DNA of 64,000 nt from Escherichia phage anhysbys. Shown here piece after piece: positions 12,131 to 46,696 of the stretch. The translations under genes and the position numbers were made by a program. The notes under the pieces were generated by a model that was not told the DNA's origin, did not search any database, and saw only the letters and a list, made by a program, of their open reading frames with translations. Positions within the stretch are counted from its first letter, which is position 1. Each line of letters begins with the position of its first letter. The stretch lies in the sequence record NC_052656.1; one strand, written 5' to 3'.

Positions 12131-12536
12131 TACCCCTCCATTCAAGACAAGCCATAACTTTACGCCAATCACTTTCTGTAAGAAAAATCTCGTTTGCTTT
12201 CTTCCACAAATCTAAATCGTGAAGGGTTGGAATACGATATGTTAGTTCACAGAATCTATGCTCTTCTTCTGTAATATAACCAAAATGCAGAGCCACATCG
12301 TGAAACCAACACCAACCATGCATCTCTCGAACAACATGGTCATGTTGAGACATTATTTTATGCCGTAAACCTAACCAACAAGGAACAGATACTTTAGTAG
12401 TCTTTAATCTGTGATCAACAGTATTAGAGTATTCAATAATAGCTGTCAGTTTCAATCGTGCTTTTTCTAAATCCTCATGCGTCACTTTGAAATAACTTTC
12501 TGAAAGATATCCACACATATTAATAACCTCCTTCAA
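12123..12536 (-). CDS. hypothetical protein
   Basis: 137-aa ORF. Confidence 0.45.
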   Translation of the reverse strand: MKEVINMCGYLSESYFKVTHEDLEKARLKLTAIIEYSNTVDHRLKTTKVSVPCWLGLRHKIMSQHDHVVREMHGWCWFHDVALHFGYITEEEHRFCELTYRIPTLHDLDLWKKANEIFLTESDWRKVMACLEWRGNE

Positions 12537-13461
12537 AAGGCTTTACTACATGTTGATTAGCTTTAAAACGTTCAACATAGTCGTTTTCGCCCATGTTTTC
12601 ATATAGCTTAATAACAACATAAAAGTTTTCCCAAGCATATTCCCTAAACCAACCACTAGTGATGGATGTGCAGACTTTAGATAAAGCCATTATAAAACTT
12701 TGCTTAGGGGTTGGACCTCCGATCTCTCCACCGAAAGGAATTTGTGAACGTTCCAAAGCCAAAACACACGCTTCTTCATAAACACCTAACAGGCGCACAT
12801 GTTTTGGTTGAGCAAAAAACTTTTCTTTGCTGGTCATAACTTCACTTCCATCTTTCATATAAGATTTATATGCTGGGGCATCCATTACCGCGATTGCTTC
12901 ATGGATAGAATCATGATCATAAACATACGGAACCTCATCACCTTTAAAAAAGTCTTTACTTTTTACGTTTAAGTTCGGATGAGAGTAAGTGTATGTTTCT
13001 TTCTCACGCAACTCATAAATACTCTTAAGATTTTCTGGGATCTTTGCGCCAAGTGACCGCATGAAATGAATATCTTTCATAGTTTTAAAGAAGTGAGGAC
13101 TATCCTTTTTAAAACGATGACTCATTTTAAGAAGGTAGAGCACATCTAAAGGAGCAACAACATGTCCAGCATAAGTTCGACGAACATCATCAGAATCTTC
13201 ACAATAACTAATCAAAGCTTCTGTGCTATCTCCTTGAGAAGCAATATCGTATTCCAAATGTGCACCAGCTATCATTTTGACATGGCCTTTGTTCCCTTTA
13301 CGTTCTACAAGTTCAACAAACTCATCTTGAGAGAACATTTTTGATAATTCTTCCCACTCTTGTTCTGTACACAGGTAATCTAAATCTACACAAGGGCGAT
13401 ACAAGTCTTTTCCCATGTCCATAGCATGAATTTGTAATGCACGGCTACCAATTAACACCAT
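12520..13461 (-). CDS. hypothetical protein (313 aa)
   Basis: Long ORF; N-terminal GS...DLD pattern is only weakly nucleotidyltransferase-like. Confidence 0.5.
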   Translation of the reverse strand: MVLIGSRALQIHAMDMGKDLYRPCVDLDYLCTEQEWEELSKMFSQDEFVELVERKGNKGHVKMIAGAHLEYDIASQGDSTEALISYCEDSDDVRRTYAGHVVAPLDVLYLLKMSHRFKKDSPHFFKTMKDIHFMRSLGAKIPENLKSIYELREKETYTYSHPNLNVKSKDFFKGDEVPYVYDHDSIHEAIAVMDAPAYKSYMKDGSEVMTSKEKFFAQPKHVRLLGVYEEACVLALERSQIPFGGEIGGPTPKQSFIMALSKVCTSITSGWFREYAWENFYVVIKLYENMGENDYVERFKANQHVVKPFEGGY

Positions 13462-13519
13462 AATATTTCTCCTCTATTGGTTGATAGGTTAAGTTTATCA
13501 AGCTTCCAGATTCCTGTCA

Positions 13520-13545
13520 ATAAAAAACCCGCCGAAGCGGGTTAT
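13520..13545 (-). terminator. intrinsic terminator (UUCG tetraloop) on minus strand
   Basis: Minus-strand CCCGC-UUCG-GCGGG followed by UUUUUU. Confidence 0.7.
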
Positions 13546-13551
13546 TATTTA

Positions 13552-13824
13552 CTAACACATTGAGGAAGAAGAGATCCAAACACCTCTTGTGGTTAAACCA
13601 TTTTCATCCAACTCTACACCATAATCTTCACAAATGAAATCAATATAGTGATCTGCGGCTGGCGTTCCTGTAGGGTAATAAGTTTCTCCGTTACCGTAGT
13701 CACCTATCCAAGCTTGTTCCTGAAACTGTTCACAAAGTTCTTCAATTTCCTTACGAAACTTTCTTTGTGCTTGTTCCATCTCTTTAACTTTCTTTTTTAT
13801 CAGCAGTTCGCCTTCAGACTCCAC
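13552..13824 (-). CDS. hypothetical acidic protein, paralog family 2 (C-terminal GVWISSSSMC)
   Basis: 90-aa ORF; GTG start after AAGGAGAG overlapping upstream stop. Confidence 0.5.
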   Translation of the reverse strand: MESEGELLIKKKVKEMEQAQRKFRKEIEELCEQFQEQAWIGDYGNGETYYPTGTPAADHYIDFICEDYGVELDENGLTTRGVWISSSSMC

Positions 13825-13833
13825 AATCTCTCC

Positions 13834-14052
13834 TTAACAGCTACTACTGTGCCAAACGCCTTGAGAATTAACGACGAAACCATCATCACCTTCACCATAA
13901 CAAGAAGAGGATTGCCAATCTTCAAAACAGATTGCGTCATTTTCTAAACTAAGACCAAAACCAGCATCTTCAGCTTCTTTTGTAAGTTCGTCCACTAAAG
14001 CCATAATAGCTTGGGCTTTTTCAGTTAATTCTTCAACATTACGATCACTCAT
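13834..14052 (-). CDS. hypothetical acidic protein, paralog family 2 (EDWQSSSC and C-terminal GVWHSSSC)
   Basis: Start moved to ATG 14052 (aggaga RBS, ATGA overlap with upstream stop). Confidence 0.5.
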   Translation of the reverse strand: MSDRNVEELTEKAQAIMALVDELTKEAEDAGFGLSLENDAICFEDWQSSSCYGEGDDGFVVNSQGVWHSSSC

Positions 14053-14321
14053 TAGTATTTCTCCTCTGGTTGGAAAACTGAACGACAGGCCCACATAGAA
14101 GCTTCTTTCAACTTAGTCTTTGCTATTGAAATTTGGTCAAGGCGGGTGGATATATTGGTAGACTCTTCCAAATCTTCACAATCATCCAGTTCAGCCCACA
14201 ATTCAGACATTAGAGCATCAAAGATTAATCCTAATCGAACTTCAGCATCTTTAATAGCATTCACTTTACCAATTTTGTCATCGGTATGCGGTTTATAACC
14301 TTTGATATCTTCGATTCCCAC
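14052..14321 (-). CDS. hypothetical protein
   Basis: Start moved to GTG 14321 preceded by AGGAGG. Confidence 0.4.
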   Translation of the reverse strand: MGIEDIKGYKPHTDDKIGKVNAIKDAEVRLGLIFDALMSELWAELDDCEDLEESTNISTRLDQISIAKTKLKEASMWACRSVFQPEEKY

Positions 14322-14332
14322 TTTACCTCCTA

Positions 14333-14530
14333 TTAACAACTTAAAGAAGATGGATGCCAATTTGTTCCAGTATTCTCATTTTCATCTTCTGGATCATAAT
14401 AACCTCCCATCCCATATTCAGGGGAGAAACTGAAACCTTCACCAGTCTCGTCTGCTAACTGTTCTGCTTCCGCTAAAGCCTCATAAGCTGCTTTTACGGC
14501 TTCTTCTACTGTTTTAAACTTGGTCGTCAT
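14333..14530 (-). CDS. hypothetical acidic protein, paralog family 2 (C-terminal NWHPSSLSC)
   Basis: 65-aa ORF. Confidence 0.5.
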   Translation of the reverse strand: MTTKFKTVEEAVKAAYEALAEAEQLADETGEGFSFSPEYGMGGYYDPEDENENTGTNWHPSSLSC

Positions 14531-14804: not shown

Positions 14805-15295
14805 AAAACCTCCTCAATCTTGTAGTTTGACTCCATCTCCAACACATTTCCACGAACGTCTCTCCGAAGAAAGGCATAAGCTTTATTAGGTATTGTAGAC
14901 TCATATTTAACCATATCTGGCACAGCAAAAGATACTACTACTCCTGCTGGGCTTCTGTCAAGAGCCTTATTAATATTTCTAAGGATATCGTTAGCCAAAA
15001 TTTCTGCCAATTCTCCAAGAACGGTTTCGGTTATATCTTTATATCCCATTAAGTATTTGTTGATATCTTTCATCTCTGTATTGTTCAGAGTATAATCCAA
15101 AGGATAGAAATTCAAAGCGGAGTCACTTTTATGTGTCCACATGAAATGCACCCGATCCGAGCAGAATCGTAACCCTCTTTGAAGAATATCTTCTACAACA
15201 GGCAGAATTTCTTTTGTCACATCATTAACCATGTTGTAATCTAAGATTTCTGCCAAGTTTGTTCTTTGTTCACCACGTTTACGTTTAGGAATCAC
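14783..15295 (-). CDS. hypothetical protein
   Basis: 170-aa ORF. Confidence 0.5.
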   Translation of the reverse strand: MIPKRKRGEQRTNLAEILDYNMVNDVTKEILPVVEDILQRGLRFCSDRVHFMWTHKSDSALNFYPLDYTLNNTEMKDINKYLMGYKDITETVLGELAEILANDILRNINKALDRSPAGVVVSFAVPDMVKYESTIPNKAYAFLRRDVRGNVLEMESNYKIEEVLWQSSDQ

Positions 15296-15866
15296 TTGTT
15301 ATTGCCCTCATTACCAAAGGTCGTAGAAAATCGTAAATCTCTTGTTTTGTTTTCCCACGAATGTTTAAACAAGGAACATTATTGGCTTTAGCTATCTTCC
15401 AAGCCGTAGCTGTTCCACCTTTTGCATCTCCATGTTTATCAGTATTAGCACAAGCCAACAAGAAACATGATGGAGCAGGATTCTCCAAATCTCTACCTAA
15501 CACTTGATGCACATTACGTTGGTGCAATTTTCTAGCACCCTGCTTAAGCTTTTCATAGGCTGGGTGAACATCTTTGATCCATTGCACAGAGATAGCATAG
15601 TTCATTGTATCTGGTTTTGCAAGAACAATAACATCCCCTGGAATCTGATTACCTTTGAAATTTTCCCAAGGAACATAAATCTCCTTGTTAGTAGGATTTT
15701 CAGACTCTTGGACACCTGTTTCAAAAGCAGAATCACTACCCTCTGCCTTCCCAGACCTTAATTTAAACCCAAGGTTTGAAAGCCATTTCCCTATGCCTAC
15801 CATCAAAGCCCACTCTTCTTCGGATATGTCTCTACTTCCAACTCCCGTATAGAACAGTTCTGCCAT
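15285..15866 (-). CDS. DprA/Smf-like Rossmann-fold protein (SLOG superfamily)
   Basis: GVGSRDIS ... GFKLRSGKAEGSDSAFETG resembles the DprA/SLOG nucleotide-binding motif; start moved to ATG 15866 after GAGGTG. Confidence 0.4.
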   Translation of the reverse strand: MAELFYTGVGSRDISEEEWALMVGIGKWLSNLGFKLRSGKAEGSDSAFETGVQESENPTNKEIYVPWENFKGNQIPGDVIVLAKPDTMNYAISVQWIKDVHPAYEKLKQGARKLHQRNVHQVLGRDLENPAPSCFLLACANTDKHGDAKGGTATAWKIAKANNVPCLNIRGKTKQEIYDFLRPLVMRAITSDS

Positions 15867-15873
15867 AATCACC

Positions 15874-16182
15874 TCAACAAGTAATTTCAAAAGGTGTATA
15901 GGGTTCCGTATTTCTCATGATCCAAGGACTGCTAGGATTGCTCGGATCATAAGGGCCAAAAGGTTTTATGGTAGGTTGTGTTTCTTTCTTCTGAATCTCT
16001 TCAAAAATACGACGAAGTTCAGAATATTCTTGATCCACCATAAGATTCGGTGCATCTGATTCTACAGCTTGCAGGTTATCTTCCTTAAGAACAATCTCAC
16101 GAACAAGATTAACATCTTCTGTTTCTAAGATAACTTCTTTACGGATATTACCTACACTTTGAATAATTGTAATCTTATACAT
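15874..16182 (-). CDS. hypothetical protein
   Basis: 102-aa ORF. Confidence 0.45.
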   Translation of the reverse strand: MYKITIIQSVGNIRKEVILETEDVNLVREIVLKEDNLQAVESDAPNLMVDQEYSELRRIFEEIQKKETQPTIKPFGPYDPSNPSSPWIMRNTEPYTPFEITC

Positions 16183-44773: not shown

Positions 44774-44848
44774 GGCCCTGTAGCTCAATGGGAGAGCTGT
44801 CGGCTCATAACCGATAGGTAGCTGGATCGAAACCAGCCAGGGCCACCA
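44774..44848 (+). tRNA. tRNA-Met (anticodon CAT)
   Basis: Manual cloverleaf: acceptor GGCCCTG/CAGGGCC, loop CTCATAA, T-arm GCTGG-ATCGAAA-CCAGC, encoded CCA. Confidence 0.8.
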
Positions 44849-44850
44849 AC

Positions 44851-44925
44851 GTCTTTATGGTGTAATGGATAGCACAGGAGTCTTCTAAACTCTTAGTCAA
44901 GGTTCGATTCCTTGTAAAGACACCA
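44851..44925 (+). tRNA. tRNA-Arg (anticodon TCT)
   Basis: Acceptor GTCTTTA/TAAAGAC, loop CTTCTAA, T-loop TTCGATT, encoded CCA. Confidence 0.8.
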
Positions 44926-45120
44926 GAACATTTTAACATGAATTAGCTCAAGTGATTTGAACCCACTACTGATCATGGTGGCAGAGAATGAGGCAAGTAT
45001 GTCAGACATTATAAACAAAGGCCACGGTTATATTAGAAGACATAAATGCTCGAAGAGCACCGTTCGTTGAGAACGGGGGTTGGTGGAGTCACCATTCATG
45101 GTAAAATGTTTTAAAAACTA

Positions 45121-45150
45121 TTGACAACTAACATTATTTTATGTTAGATT
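45121..45150 (+). promoter_or_regulatory. sigma70-like promoter (CTATTGACAA family)
   Basis: TTGACA at 45121-45126, 18-nt spacer, TAGATT. Confidence 0.4.
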
Positions 45151-45158
45151 ATAAGTAT

Positions 45159-45249
45159 GGAAGGGCAAATCGACGTGGCGACGAAAACGGTCTTGAAAAC
45201 CGCCGAGCTTGAAAGAGCCTTGGGAGTTCGACTCTCCCTCCTTCCGCCA
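45159..45249 (+). tRNA. tRNA-Ser (anticodon TGA), class II
   Basis: Acceptor GGAAGGG/TCCTTCC, loop CTTGAAA, long variable arm, T-arm GGGAG-TTCGACT-CTCCC, encoded CCA. Confidence 0.75.
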
Positions 45250-45254
45250 GATTA

Positions 45255-45340
45255 GGTAGATTGGTGAAATGGTAGCCACAACAGTTTGCTAAACTGTAGT
45301 CGGAAACGGCGTGTAGGTTCGAGTCCTACATCTACCGCCA
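45255..45340 (+). tRNA. tRNA-Ser (anticodon GCT), class II
   Basis: Acceptor GGTAGAT/ATCTACC, stem ACAGT/ACTGT with loop TTGCTAA, long variable arm, encoded CCA. Confidence 0.8.
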
Positions 45341-45470
45341 AGTTCTTTTTAATATAGCTTACTTTAATAGAGTAAACTTTCGGCAGATGGCCTCCACCAT
45401 CTTACCGATAACTCATAGTTAGTGGTGTGAACACTGGCTATTTTAAAAAGAATTTAAATATTAGTATTTA

Positions 45471-45558
45471 GGTGAGTTAATTCCGTAGGGGTAGCGGGGC
45501 AGACTGTAAATCTGTTATCATTGCGATTCGGGTGGTTCGACTCCATCACTCACCACCA
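45471..45558 (+). tRNA. tRNA-Tyr (anticodon GTA), class II
   Basis: Acceptor GGTGAGT/ACTCACC, loop CTGTAAA, long variable arm, T-arm GGTGG-TTCGACT-CCATC, encoded CCA. Confidence 0.75.
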
Positions 45559-45564
45559 AATTAA

Positions 45565-45650
45565 GATGAGTTGGCTGAATGGTTTAAGCGGCGGACTGTT
45601 AATCCGTGTTCGAAAGAACGATATAGGTTCAAATCCTATACTCATCGCCA
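45565..45650 (+). tRNA. class II tRNA with anticodon GTT (Asn-decoding by anticodon, isotype uncertain)
   Basis: Acceptor GATGAGT/ACTCATC, stem GCGGA/TCCGT with loop CTGTTAA, variable-arm hairpin GTTC-GAAA-GAAC, T-arm ATAGG-TTCAAAT-CCTAT, encoded CCA. Confidence 0.6.
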
Positions 45651-45657
45651 GAATTAT

Positions 45658-45734
45658 GGACTTGTAGAGTTAAGGTAAACCCCCAGTCGCCAAGAGGCTT
45701 CTGGAATTGCAGGTATCGAATCCTGCCGAGTCCC
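45658..45734 (+). tRNA. tRNA-like element with non-canonical anticodon arm (possible pseudo-tRNA)
   Basis: 7-bp acceptor GGACTTG/CGAGTCC and T-stem GCAGG/CCTGC with 8-nt loop TATCGAAT, but no standard 5-bp/7-nt anticodon stem-loop; no CCA. Confidence 0.3.
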
Positions 45735-45740
45735 AGCTTT

Positions 45741-45815
45741 GCTCCTATAGTATAATGGCTATTACAACGGTTTTGTAATCCGTGGATCTCTGTTCGATTC
45801 AGAGTGGGAGCACCA
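45741..45815 (+). tRNA. tRNA-Thr (anticodon TGT)
   Basis: Acceptor GCTCCTA/TGGGAGC, loop TTTGTAA, T-arm CTCTG-TTCGATT-CAGAG, encoded CCA. Confidence 0.75.
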
Positions 45816-46088
45816 ACACAACATTAAGGGCACTGTGATTGATCGTCGTATCCTGTGCACAAGGTCTGTTCGAAAGACAGTGTTCTTAGTATTGTGTTGA
45901 TCACACAAAGAGTCACCTGAAACTTGACCGGAGTAGGGTTGGATGGGGCAAAAGAAGAAGCGGCTCTCCCATCGACAGCAACGAAGAATAATATTTGACT
46001 TTGGTTTTGTATTATTTTAAGTTAGCTTACCGAACGTAGGGCTAGTCACCCAATGGGATACTCGTCACTGTCCCACTCAATAAAACTA

Positions 46089-46118
46089 TTGACAACCAAT
46101 AGTAAAATGTAGTATAGT
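46089..46118 (+). promoter_or_regulatory. sigma70-like promoter (CTATTGACAA family)
   Basis: TTGACA at 46089-46094, 18-nt spacer, TATAGT. Confidence 0.45.
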
Positions 46119-46129
46119 AAAGATGTAGG

Positions 46130-46203
46130 GCGTTCTTGGTGTAGCGGTAGCATTCCGTCCTTCCAAGTCGGCGGCACGAGTTCGATCCTCGTAGAACGCT
46201 CCA
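46130..46203 (+). tRNA. tRNA-Gly (anticodon TCC)
   Basis: Acceptor GCGTTCT/AGAACGC, loop CTTCCAA, T-arm ACGAG-TTCGATC-CTCGT, encoded CCA. Confidence 0.75.
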
Positions 46204-46301
46204 AATTATTTAATAAAGGGTTGCCAGAAAACTTTCTCTTTTACTCATGGTTTTCTCCTTCTCTCACACCTCTTCTGGTTGCCCTTCATTAAATGATTTA
46301 T

Positions 46302-46376
46302 TGGTTTGTAGTGTAGTCCGGTAGCACACGACACTTTGACTGTCGTAGGTTTGGTTCAAATCCAGACAGACCAGCC
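46302..46376 (+). tRNA. tRNA-Gln (anticodon TTG)
   Basis: U1-A72 acceptor TGGTTTG/CAGACCA with discriminator G, stem CGACA/TGTCG with loop CTTTGAC, encoded CCA. Confidence 0.8.
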
Positions 46377-46382
46377 ATATAA

Positions 46383-46459
46383 CGGAATTTAGCTCAGTTT
46401 GGTAGAGCATACGCTTTGGGAGCGTAGGGTCGCAGGTTCGAATCCTGCAATTCCGACCA
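46383..46459 (+). tRNA. tRNA-Pro (anticodon TGG)
   Basis: C1-G72 acceptor CGGAATT/AATTCCG, stem TACGC/GCGTA with loop TTTGGGA, T-loop TTCGAAT, encoded CCA. Confidence 0.8.
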
Positions 46460-46465
46460 ATCAAA

Positions 46466-46539
46466 TGTTTCGTAGTTCAATGGTAGAACCCACGACTGAT
46501 AATCGTGAGACACAAGTTCGATTCTTGTCGAAACAACCA
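46466..46539 (+). tRNA. tRNA-Ile (anticodon GAT)
   Basis: Acceptor TGTTTCG/CGAAACA, stem CACGA/TCGTG with loop CTGATAA, T-arm ACAAG-TTCGATT-CTTGT, encoded CCA. Confidence 0.75.
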
Positions 46540-46541
46540 GT

Positions 46542-46611
46542 TTCCCGTTAGACTTACAGGATAAGAGTTCCACAACTTATTGTGATGCTGGTTCGAATCC
46601 AGCACGGGATA
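46542..46611 (+). tRNA. tRNA-like element with non-canonical anticodon arm (possible pseudo-tRNA)
   Basis: Acceptor TTCCCGT/ACGGGAT (1-72 mismatch) and canonical T-arm GCTGG-TTCGAAT-CCAGC, but middle folds only as CACAA-CTTA-TTGTG; no CCA. Confidence 0.3.
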
Positions 46612-46617
46612 CATAAT

Positions 46618-46696
46618 AGCGGGATAGAGGAGTCTGGTCGTCCTCGCCAGTTTCATATGCTGGAGATCATCGGTTCAAATCCGATTCCCGCCTCCA
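46618..46696 (+). tRNA. tRNA-Met (anticodon CAT), second copy, initiator/Ile2 not excluded
   Basis: Acceptor AGCGGGA/TCCCGCC with A1.C72 mismatch, stem CCAGT/GCTGG with loop TTCATAT, T-arm ATCGG-TTCAAAT-CCGAT, encoded CCA. Confidence 0.65.

Follow-up and report, generated by a model that had tools for sequence, protein, structure and literature searches.

The nearest described arrangement to the locus reported here is, by analogy, MenAT1 of Mycobacterium tuberculosis, a nucleotidyltransferase with a small upstream partner, in which the helical protein MenA1 (68 amino acids, aa), whose gene stands upstream of menT1, blocks the active site of MenT1 (PMC10435456). Our locus lies in Escherichia phage anhysbys (sequence record NC_052656.1), from which we analyzed a stretch of 64,000 nucleotides (nt), hereafter the window. 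There, three small minus-strand genes, named A, B and C here, encode acidic proteins that end in a shared Trp/Ser/terminal-Cys tail and lie upstream of a gene for an enzyme with the sequence signature and modeled fold of a nucleotidyltransferase. We found that A, B and C are members of a widespread, phage-restricted and uncharacterized protein family with this conserved tail (the tail family), and that its linkage to the enzyme is near-obligate and oriented. As in MenAT1, a small gene precedes a gene for a nucleotidyltransferase of the MenT fold; however, MenAT1 is bacterial and has one antitoxin, whereas the phage module carries arrays of 1–6 diverged paralogs. MenA1 also lacks a conserved Trp/Ser/Cys tail, and the phage enzyme differs from MenT1 in an extra conserved C-terminal region (H183-D184, H187, KVCTSITSG) and in having no match to DUF1814/AbiEii.

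Transfer of nucleotides to proteins is carried out by Pol-beta-fold nucleotidyltransferase domains with a G-x-D-x-D motif in GlnE, GlnD and Legionella DrrA, which AMPylate or UMPylate a protein hydroxyl, and CitX and MdcG of the nucleotidyltransferase superfamily modify a Ser of the small acidic carriers CitD and MdcC. The CitX/MdcG system differs from the phage module in its single carrier, internal Ser and metabolic setting, and we detected no similarity between the two. ANT(2'')-Ia and LnuA are O-nucleotidyltransferases of small molecules, with antibiotics as acceptors; they have no sequence similarity to the phage enzyme and lack partner proteins. Sets of diverged paralogs that present one C-terminal motif to one enzyme are familiar from LPXTG/sortase, PEP-CTERM/exosortase and CaaX/prenyltransferase, although the likeness is an analogy only, as those signals anchor proteins to the membrane or cell wall through unrelated enzymes, whereas the tail family is cytosolic and acidic and has a nucleotidyltransferase as its partner. 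The DNA-mimic anti-restriction proteins Ocr, ArdA and Arn are likewise small, very acidic, early phage proteins, but match the tail family in neither fold nor sequence and have no conserved C-terminal motif or dedicated partner enzyme.

At this region the window is 99% identical to Phapecoctavirus phages, phAPEC8 and tuntematon among them, and the phAPEC8 counterparts gp191 (A), gp190 (B) and gp188 (C) are all labeled hypothetical. Paralog A (13552-13824, minus strand) encodes 90 aa with a GDYGNGETYYP motif and the C-terminus GVWISSSSMC, its tail (W83-I-S-S-S-S-M-C90) occupying nt 13555-13578. Paralog B (13834-14052, minus strand) encodes 72 aa, counted from the ATG annotated in phAPEC8 as the start of gp190, and carries the motif both at its C-terminus (GVWHSSSC; W67-H-S-S-S-C72, nt 13837-13854) and internally (EDWQSSSC, residues 44-51; W46-Q-S-S-S-C51, nt 13900-13917). 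Paralog C (14333-14530, minus strand) encodes 65 aa, with an N-terminal helix, a YGMGGYY motif and the C-terminus TNWHPSSLSC (W58-H-P-S-S-L-S-C65, nt 14336-14359). A preliminary description of this DNA, made from its letters and open reading frames (ORFs), had reported three acidic minus-strand proteins with these C-termini, an internal second copy in the middle one and different Ser codons between copies, all of which we confirmed: isoelectric points (pI) are 4.40 for A and 4.05 for both B and C, with net charges of -10 to -13, and the Ser codons read tct tct tcc tca in A, agt agt agc in the terminal copy of B, tcc tct tct in its internal copy and tct tct ... agt in C. It had also called the genes neighboring, and they do share a strand and region, but they are not strictly adjacent, with an Acb2-family gene between B and C.

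The window contains 640 stop-to-stop frames of 40 aa or longer; 29 of them end in Cys, and the pattern W.{0,2}SS.{0,3}C$ occurs in A, B and C only; a chance origin of the three tails is excluded within the window. Nor does the motif arise from an overlapping ribosome-binding site (RBS), as the preliminary description had considered: a stop codon precedes the next gene's RBS for each copy of the tail, and because the RBSs sit 3' of the stop codons they place no nucleotide-level constraint on the motif. A hidden Markov model (HMM) of the family, run on the window ORFs, matched A, B and C and nothing else (E=2.6e-10 for B and 2.6e-20 for C). The profile of PHROG 899, a group of unknown function, also matched all three (E=5.1e-14 for A, 1.4e-5 for B and 1.4e-13 for C), each alignment covering the C-terminal part of the profile.

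Homologs in T4-like phages, at 28–57% identity, retain both GDYGxGxTYYP and G-x-W-x-S-S-S-x-x-C, and the tail is kept in more than 200 homologs from very different phages, bearing out the earlier claim of protein-level conservation in a true paralog family and disposing of the alternative that no homolog shares the tail. A tblastn search with one small-protein homolog (P0007) returned 445 phage records. The 168 unique members have a median length of 82 aa and a median pI of 4.4; the tail takes the form G-G-W-[V/I]-S-S-S-x-x-C in 126 and a shorter form, with four residues between Trp and terminal Cys, in 35, and the terminal Cys is the sole Cys in 69, as it is in paralog C. Every paralog follows one layout, starting with an amphipathic helix at the N-terminus, continuing with a small beta-sheet and finishing with the tail W-x-x-S-[S/A]-x(0-2)-Cys-COOH, and A, B and C all show the defining helix, small beta unit and tail at the very end. 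When we searched with an HMM of the bodies only (last ten residues removed), 45 of 55 non-seed matches ended in W..S..C, so the tail is not an artifact of selecting members by the motif. The bodies split into subfamilies that are conserved across distant phages, and the tail is common to all of them; the B type with both motif copies, for example, is also found in Aeromonas phage 31 and others. An AlphaFold2 (AF2) model of A, with a predicted local distance difference test (pLDDT) score of 92, places helices at residues 4-34 and 86-89 and strands at 38-40, 47-50 and 82-85.

One Otagovirus-type subfamily has a permuted tail, GGC-E-W-E-x-S-A-...-YDYGW-N-[V/I/L], in which the Cys stands two residues before the Trp and there is no terminal Cys (2411-2827 of retrieved locus L003, and also L017, L022, L025, L032, L035 and L037). 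This C-E-W-x-x-S-A arrangement points to a site that Trp, Ser and Cys make up together in space. A, B and C had no match in Pfam, NCBIfam or PADLOC, single-sequence and profile searches of PDB sequences found no relative of the small proteins, and a BFVD fold search with a small protein returned only uncharacterized members of the same family. A profile search of 1.84 billion representative proteins gave only 35 matches. It also picked up several proteins of 800-1400 aa (P0144, P0148, P0156 and P0159) that proved to carry SpaA prealbumin repeats; each of them aligns repeatedly with the G/Y/D-rich central segment of the family profile, and we rejected them as compositional matches to that segment. 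In the 47-80 kb stretch of T4 the family HMM gave only two matches, both marginal: Tk.1 (L189:5347-5535; E=1.7e-4), which has SSEYGDAETYY and lacks the tail, and gp49.3 (L190:824-1132; E=2.4e-3), which ends in SSWWCEK.

The preliminary description covered an interval that left out key context, namely the partner enzyme one gene downstream (12520-13461, minus strand; 313 aa, gp192, Pfam DUF7277 and DUF7275), which lies 91 nt downstream of A in the same direction. A tblastn search with this enzyme returned 734 records. Residues G5, S6, D26, D28 and E70 are invariant in 26 sequences, and GS and DxD are invariant in about 155; GS...DxD...E is the signature of Pol-beta nucleotidyltransferases, including the third carboxylate. 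The C-terminal helical region is highly conserved (K112, K126, H183-D184, H187, R238 and K-V-C-T-S-I-T-S-G), and these single residues, together with C264, count among the invariant ones. An AF2 model of the enzyme (pLDDT 89) was matched among PDB structures by MenT1 (score 11.6), MenT3/TglT (10.1), ANT(2'') (9.8), a Megavirus poly(A) polymerase (9.5), MenT4 (8.9) and LnuA (8.8). The enzyme thus carries a nucleotidyltransferase signature in its sequence and the corresponding fold in its model. It had no match to Pfam DUF1814, the PADLOC AbiE models or PDB sequences, with Pfam giving DUF7275 and DUF7277 only, and we therefore term it MenT/ANT-like by fold and not a member of those families.

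To place both partners we covered loci within 3–8 kb of an anchor gene, with retrieval of viral contigs relying on conserved peptide patterns. In 85 loci fetched around enzyme homologs at 41–78% identity (6023 ORFs scanned), 214 motif-ending ORFs lie on the enzyme strand, all of them upstream of the enzyme, and none lies on the opposite strand. When enzymes were grouped into lineages at 65% identity and members were counted with the family HMM, 32 of the 38 lineages had at least one. Of these members 207 lie upstream of the enzyme and 2 downstream; a locus has 0–6 of them, and the gap has a median of 346 nt. The reverse test gave the same picture: the enzyme lies within 2 kb in 27 of 28 loci fetched via a small protein, the remaining locus being a 3.6-kb contig that ends too early. 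All-against-all clustering of the loci found no other gene family co-occurring with the enzyme in more than 6 lineages. This oriented linkage, seen in both directions, suggests that the small proteins are partners of the enzyme, as substrates or adaptors.

The arrangement recurs in unrelated phages. Mosigvirus Bas46 carries three tandem paralogs (ending WVSSSALC, WVASSHTC and WVSSSYSC) before its enzyme homolog, and the same layout is found in Otagovirus, Pseudomonas phage phiPsa381, Acidovorax phage ACP17, Aeromonas phage 31, Acinetobacter phage DLP1, Acinetobacter Lazarusvirus and Myxococcus phage Mx1. Among bacterial and archaeal genomes (one for each of 185,579 species), the enzyme was found only on nine phage-like contigs of metagenome-assembled genomes (MAGs), binned with Saccharibacteria, Bacteroidota or cyanobacterial MAGs and with tail-family ORFs just upstream of the enzyme in seven, indicating that the module is essentially restricted to phages, of several host phyla. 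None of 184 enzyme ORFs (both clades, some contigs fetched twice) is fused to the tail family, so the C-terminus of the family is always free. In T4 we found no DUF7275 enzyme within the 47-80 kb stretch that was covered; nrdC.11, annotated there as a nucleotidyltransferase, is a different one. On one metagenomic contig (L013:4001-4927) two ORFs share the enzyme gene between them, a break that probably reflects a frameshift or a pseudogene, and the lineage to which it belongs (L011-L013 and L021) has no tail family nearby.

A sister clade of shorter DUF7275 enzymes (about 250–260 aa) is represented in phages of Streptomyces, Gordonia, Vibrio and Pseudoalteromonas and in 58 IMG/VR loci. The tail family was never found with this clade in 63 loci, and a second small acidic family is present in about 60 of them, in 1–4 copies and mostly downstream of the enzyme. 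Its members have a median length of 122 aa, a pI of 4.4 and the C-terminus WDG.L.EV.P.E.TVT.Y. (for example L125:3674-4039, L124:3597-3896 and L129:2070-2366, within retrieved loci L124-L188); we found no match to them in Pfam and, with hhalign, no detectable homology to the tail family. Five loci carry an in-frame fusion of the second family to the C-terminus of the enzyme, in ORFs of 360–387 aa (L132:273-1355, L133:2950-4053, L134:2980-4119, L135:2980-4113 and L138:2845-4008), and these Rosetta-stone fusions support a direct partnership between the enzyme and small acidic proteins. At the enzyme position aligned with Cys264, the clade that accompanies the Cys-tailed family has Cys, and the other clade has Ile, Val or Ala; we take this correlation as no more than a hint, since a single phylogenetic split underlies it and the Cys was part of one retrieval pattern.

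The reading we favor, with roughly even confidence, is that A, B and C are partners of the adjacent nucleotidyltransferase, with the tail engaging the enzyme and the diverged bodies giving separate roles. The shared tail would be the element by which every paralog engages one enzyme. Most likely it would enter the active site, where the invariant Ser at the third position past the Trp would accept the nucleotidyl group on its hydroxyl, by analogy with the hydroxyls of aminoglycosides, lincosamides or tRNA 3' ends that serve as acceptors in structurally related enzymes. A close alternative is that the tail would only dock, in which case the paralogs would be adaptors, each directing the enzyme to a target of its own. 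Sigma-70-type promoters seem to drive early expression of the genes, which lie in an accessory-gene region, and from this context the system probably serves early host takeover or counter-defense. The physical interaction, the nucleotidylylation of the tail and the biological role are the parts of this account that we infer. A more specific proposal is that of a new post-translational 'tail-tag' system of phages, in which the nucleotidyltransferase would act covalently on the tails of the whole array, at the invariant Ser or by conversion of the Ser/Cys pair, and would so activate or arm diversified small effectors against different host targets, the sister clade being a parallel system with an unrelated family; this is tentative and in our view somewhat unlikely. 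The modified C-terminus suggested in the preliminary description gains indirect support from the near-obligate link to an enzyme of nucleotidyltransferase fold.

Several observations weigh against partnership through the tail. In the window, the small genes and the enzyme have a terminator and a separate putative promoter between them: a terminator-like hairpin of intrinsic type (13526-13543, minus strand; AACCCGC-TTCG-GCGGGTT and then a run of T), which the phAPEC8 annotation also gives as a terminator, closes the small-gene transcription unit, and a putative sigma-70-like promoter (13492-13520, minus strand; TTGACA, a 17-nt spacer, TAAACT and an extended -10 TG, a consensus match only) precedes the enzyme gene. 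The AF2 monomer model packs the tail of A into the fold as a strand and short helix, so conservation of the tail could be structural. The second family of the sister clade has a quite different C-terminus, indicating that partnership as such does not call for a Ser/Cys tail. MenT toxins, the closest structural relatives of the enzyme, modify tRNA and not proteins (PMC10435456). Finally, 6 of the 38 enzyme lineages have no recognizable member within 4–5 kb, although some loci scored as empty hold variant tails such as GWAPSNVCW and WTPSGCSY.

The small proteins might instead be antitoxin-like inhibitors that block or time a MenT-like tRNA nucleotidyltransferase, for example in host translation shut-off, through its basic active-site face. 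MenA1, an upstream-encoded small helical blocker of MenT1, provides a precedent (PMC10435456), and the strong acidity of the phage proteins is consistent with such a role, as is the placement of their genes upstream of, and codirectional with, the enzyme gene. However, up to six diverged paralogs accompany one enzyme, in subfamilies conserved across distant phages, which is unexpected for an inhibitor of a single target; the proteins show no sequence or fold similarity to MenA1 or to any PDB chain; the sister-clade partner lies downstream and is sometimes fused to the enzyme; and addiction logic is lacking in a lytic phage. We consider inhibition unlikely on these grounds. Small size, acidity, an early accessory region and the Acb2 homolog adjoining in this phage would equally suit independent host-targeting or anti-defense effectors, such as nucleic-acid mimics, whose tail would be simply the last strand and its cap, as modeled, and whose proximity to the enzyme would reflect shared regulation or inheritance as a block. 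The terminator followed by the enzyme's own putative promoter fits that account as well, yet the linkage persists in both directions across phage groups that share no other gene there, its orientation is strict (207 versus 2), the sister clade repeats the logic with another family, fusions included, and the Acb2 adjacency is lineage-specific; independent effectors therefore seem quite improbable. The DNA-mimic anti-defense role raised in the preliminary description could apply, as the strong acidity (pI 4.05–4.40) and the Acb2 homolog nearby agree with it, but that neighbor is lineage-specific and the predicted fold matches no known mimic.

The invariance of Trp, Ser and Cys in a fixed local geometry, which extends to the permuted version, could also mark a chemically special site, such as an intermolecular metal or redox center, or a crosslink or cofactor derived from Ser/Cys or Trp/Cys; a lanthionine-type ring formed after Ser activation, or a disulfide or metal bridge to enzyme Cys264, would be examples, and the latter has the clade-specific occurrence of Cys264 in its favor. 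Against this, 69 of the 168 members contain just one Cys, the neighborhood holds no conserved gene for a dehydratase, cyclase, radical-SAM or redox protein, A is predicted to be folded (pLDDT 92) and not a leader/core peptide, and the Cys264 correlation amounts to one phylogenetic split, in a set for which one search pattern selected for the Cys, making a special site very unlikely. Compared with ribosomally synthesized and post-translationally modified peptides (RiPPs), and lanthipeptides among them, the tail does hold Ser and Cys in a C-terminal core (S-S-S-x-x-C), but we found neither a maturase nearby nor a disordered leader-core organization, the only conserved neighbor being the nucleotidyltransferase. 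Intramolecular metal binding, another earlier suggestion, is not supported: members in which the terminal Cys is the only one are common (69 of 168), and the three or four conserved Cys/His ligands expected within the chain of a zinc or metal protein are absent. Chance resemblance or a constraint at the nucleotide level, from an overlapping RBS or a repeat, has a negligible probability, given that the Ser codons vary from copy to copy, that the RBSs follow the stop codons and that more than 200 homologs keep the tail at 28–50% protein identity.

A literature search on the family, the DUFs, the ORF names and such a module found nothing, and all database records that we saw label the small proteins hypothetical; a few name the enzyme 'putative nucleotidyltransferase protein' or, evidently wrongly, 'prohead assembly scaffold protein'. 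We found no described counterpart for the restriction to phages, the multi-paralog arrays, the invariant Trp/Ser/terminal-Cys tail or the parallel second partner family. Family and enzyme together are present in hundreds of sequenced phages, including RB69-type T4-like phages, Phapecoctavirus, Mosigvirus, Karamvirus-like and Acinetobacter groups, and the linkage and the sister clade define a two-component module whose biochemistry is directly testable: the question is whether a nucleotidyltransferase acts on such a conserved tail, or by way of it. Nucleotidylylation of the tail, if it occurs, would be a kind of protein modification new for phages, with one enzyme arming several effectors; if the small proteins are inhibitors, the MenT-like enzyme that phages carry would be a regulated one, with tRNA as its possible substrate. 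Either outcome would be relevant to host takeover and counter-defense.

The gene between B and C (14052-14321, minus strand; 89 aa, GTG start) encodes a homolog of the Acb2/Tad1-hairpin family of sponges that counter the cyclic oligonucleotide-based antiphage signaling system, CBASS (Pfam PF24729 Acb2_Tad1_hairpin: E=1.2e-19, 70.7 bits, cutoff 27). It belongs to the same transcription unit as the small genes and is not a tail-family member. Its position inside the array is lineage-specific: C, B and A are contiguous in the closest non-identical relative of the window locus, and in other lineages Acb2 either lies about 7 kb from the array, as in T4-like contigs, or is missing from the locus. 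We therefore gave little weight to this adjacency as a sign of an anti-CBASS role.

Further upstream in the same gene string, a 102-aa protein (15874-16182, minus strand) ends in TEPYTPFEITC, lacks the Trp/Ser motif and had no match to the family HMM. The gene at 15285-15890 (minus strand) and its phAPEC8 neighbors comprise genes for a DprA-like protein, a Sir2-like protein, an HslV-like peptidase, a NinI-like phosphatase and two DNA methyltransferases, and none of these accessory-region genes is kept with the module in other lineages. The window also contains ten tRNA genes (44774-46696, plus strand; Met, Arg, Ser, Asn, Thr, Gly, Gln, Pro, Ile and Met), a cluster that may matter if the MenT-like enzyme acts on tRNA 3' ends.

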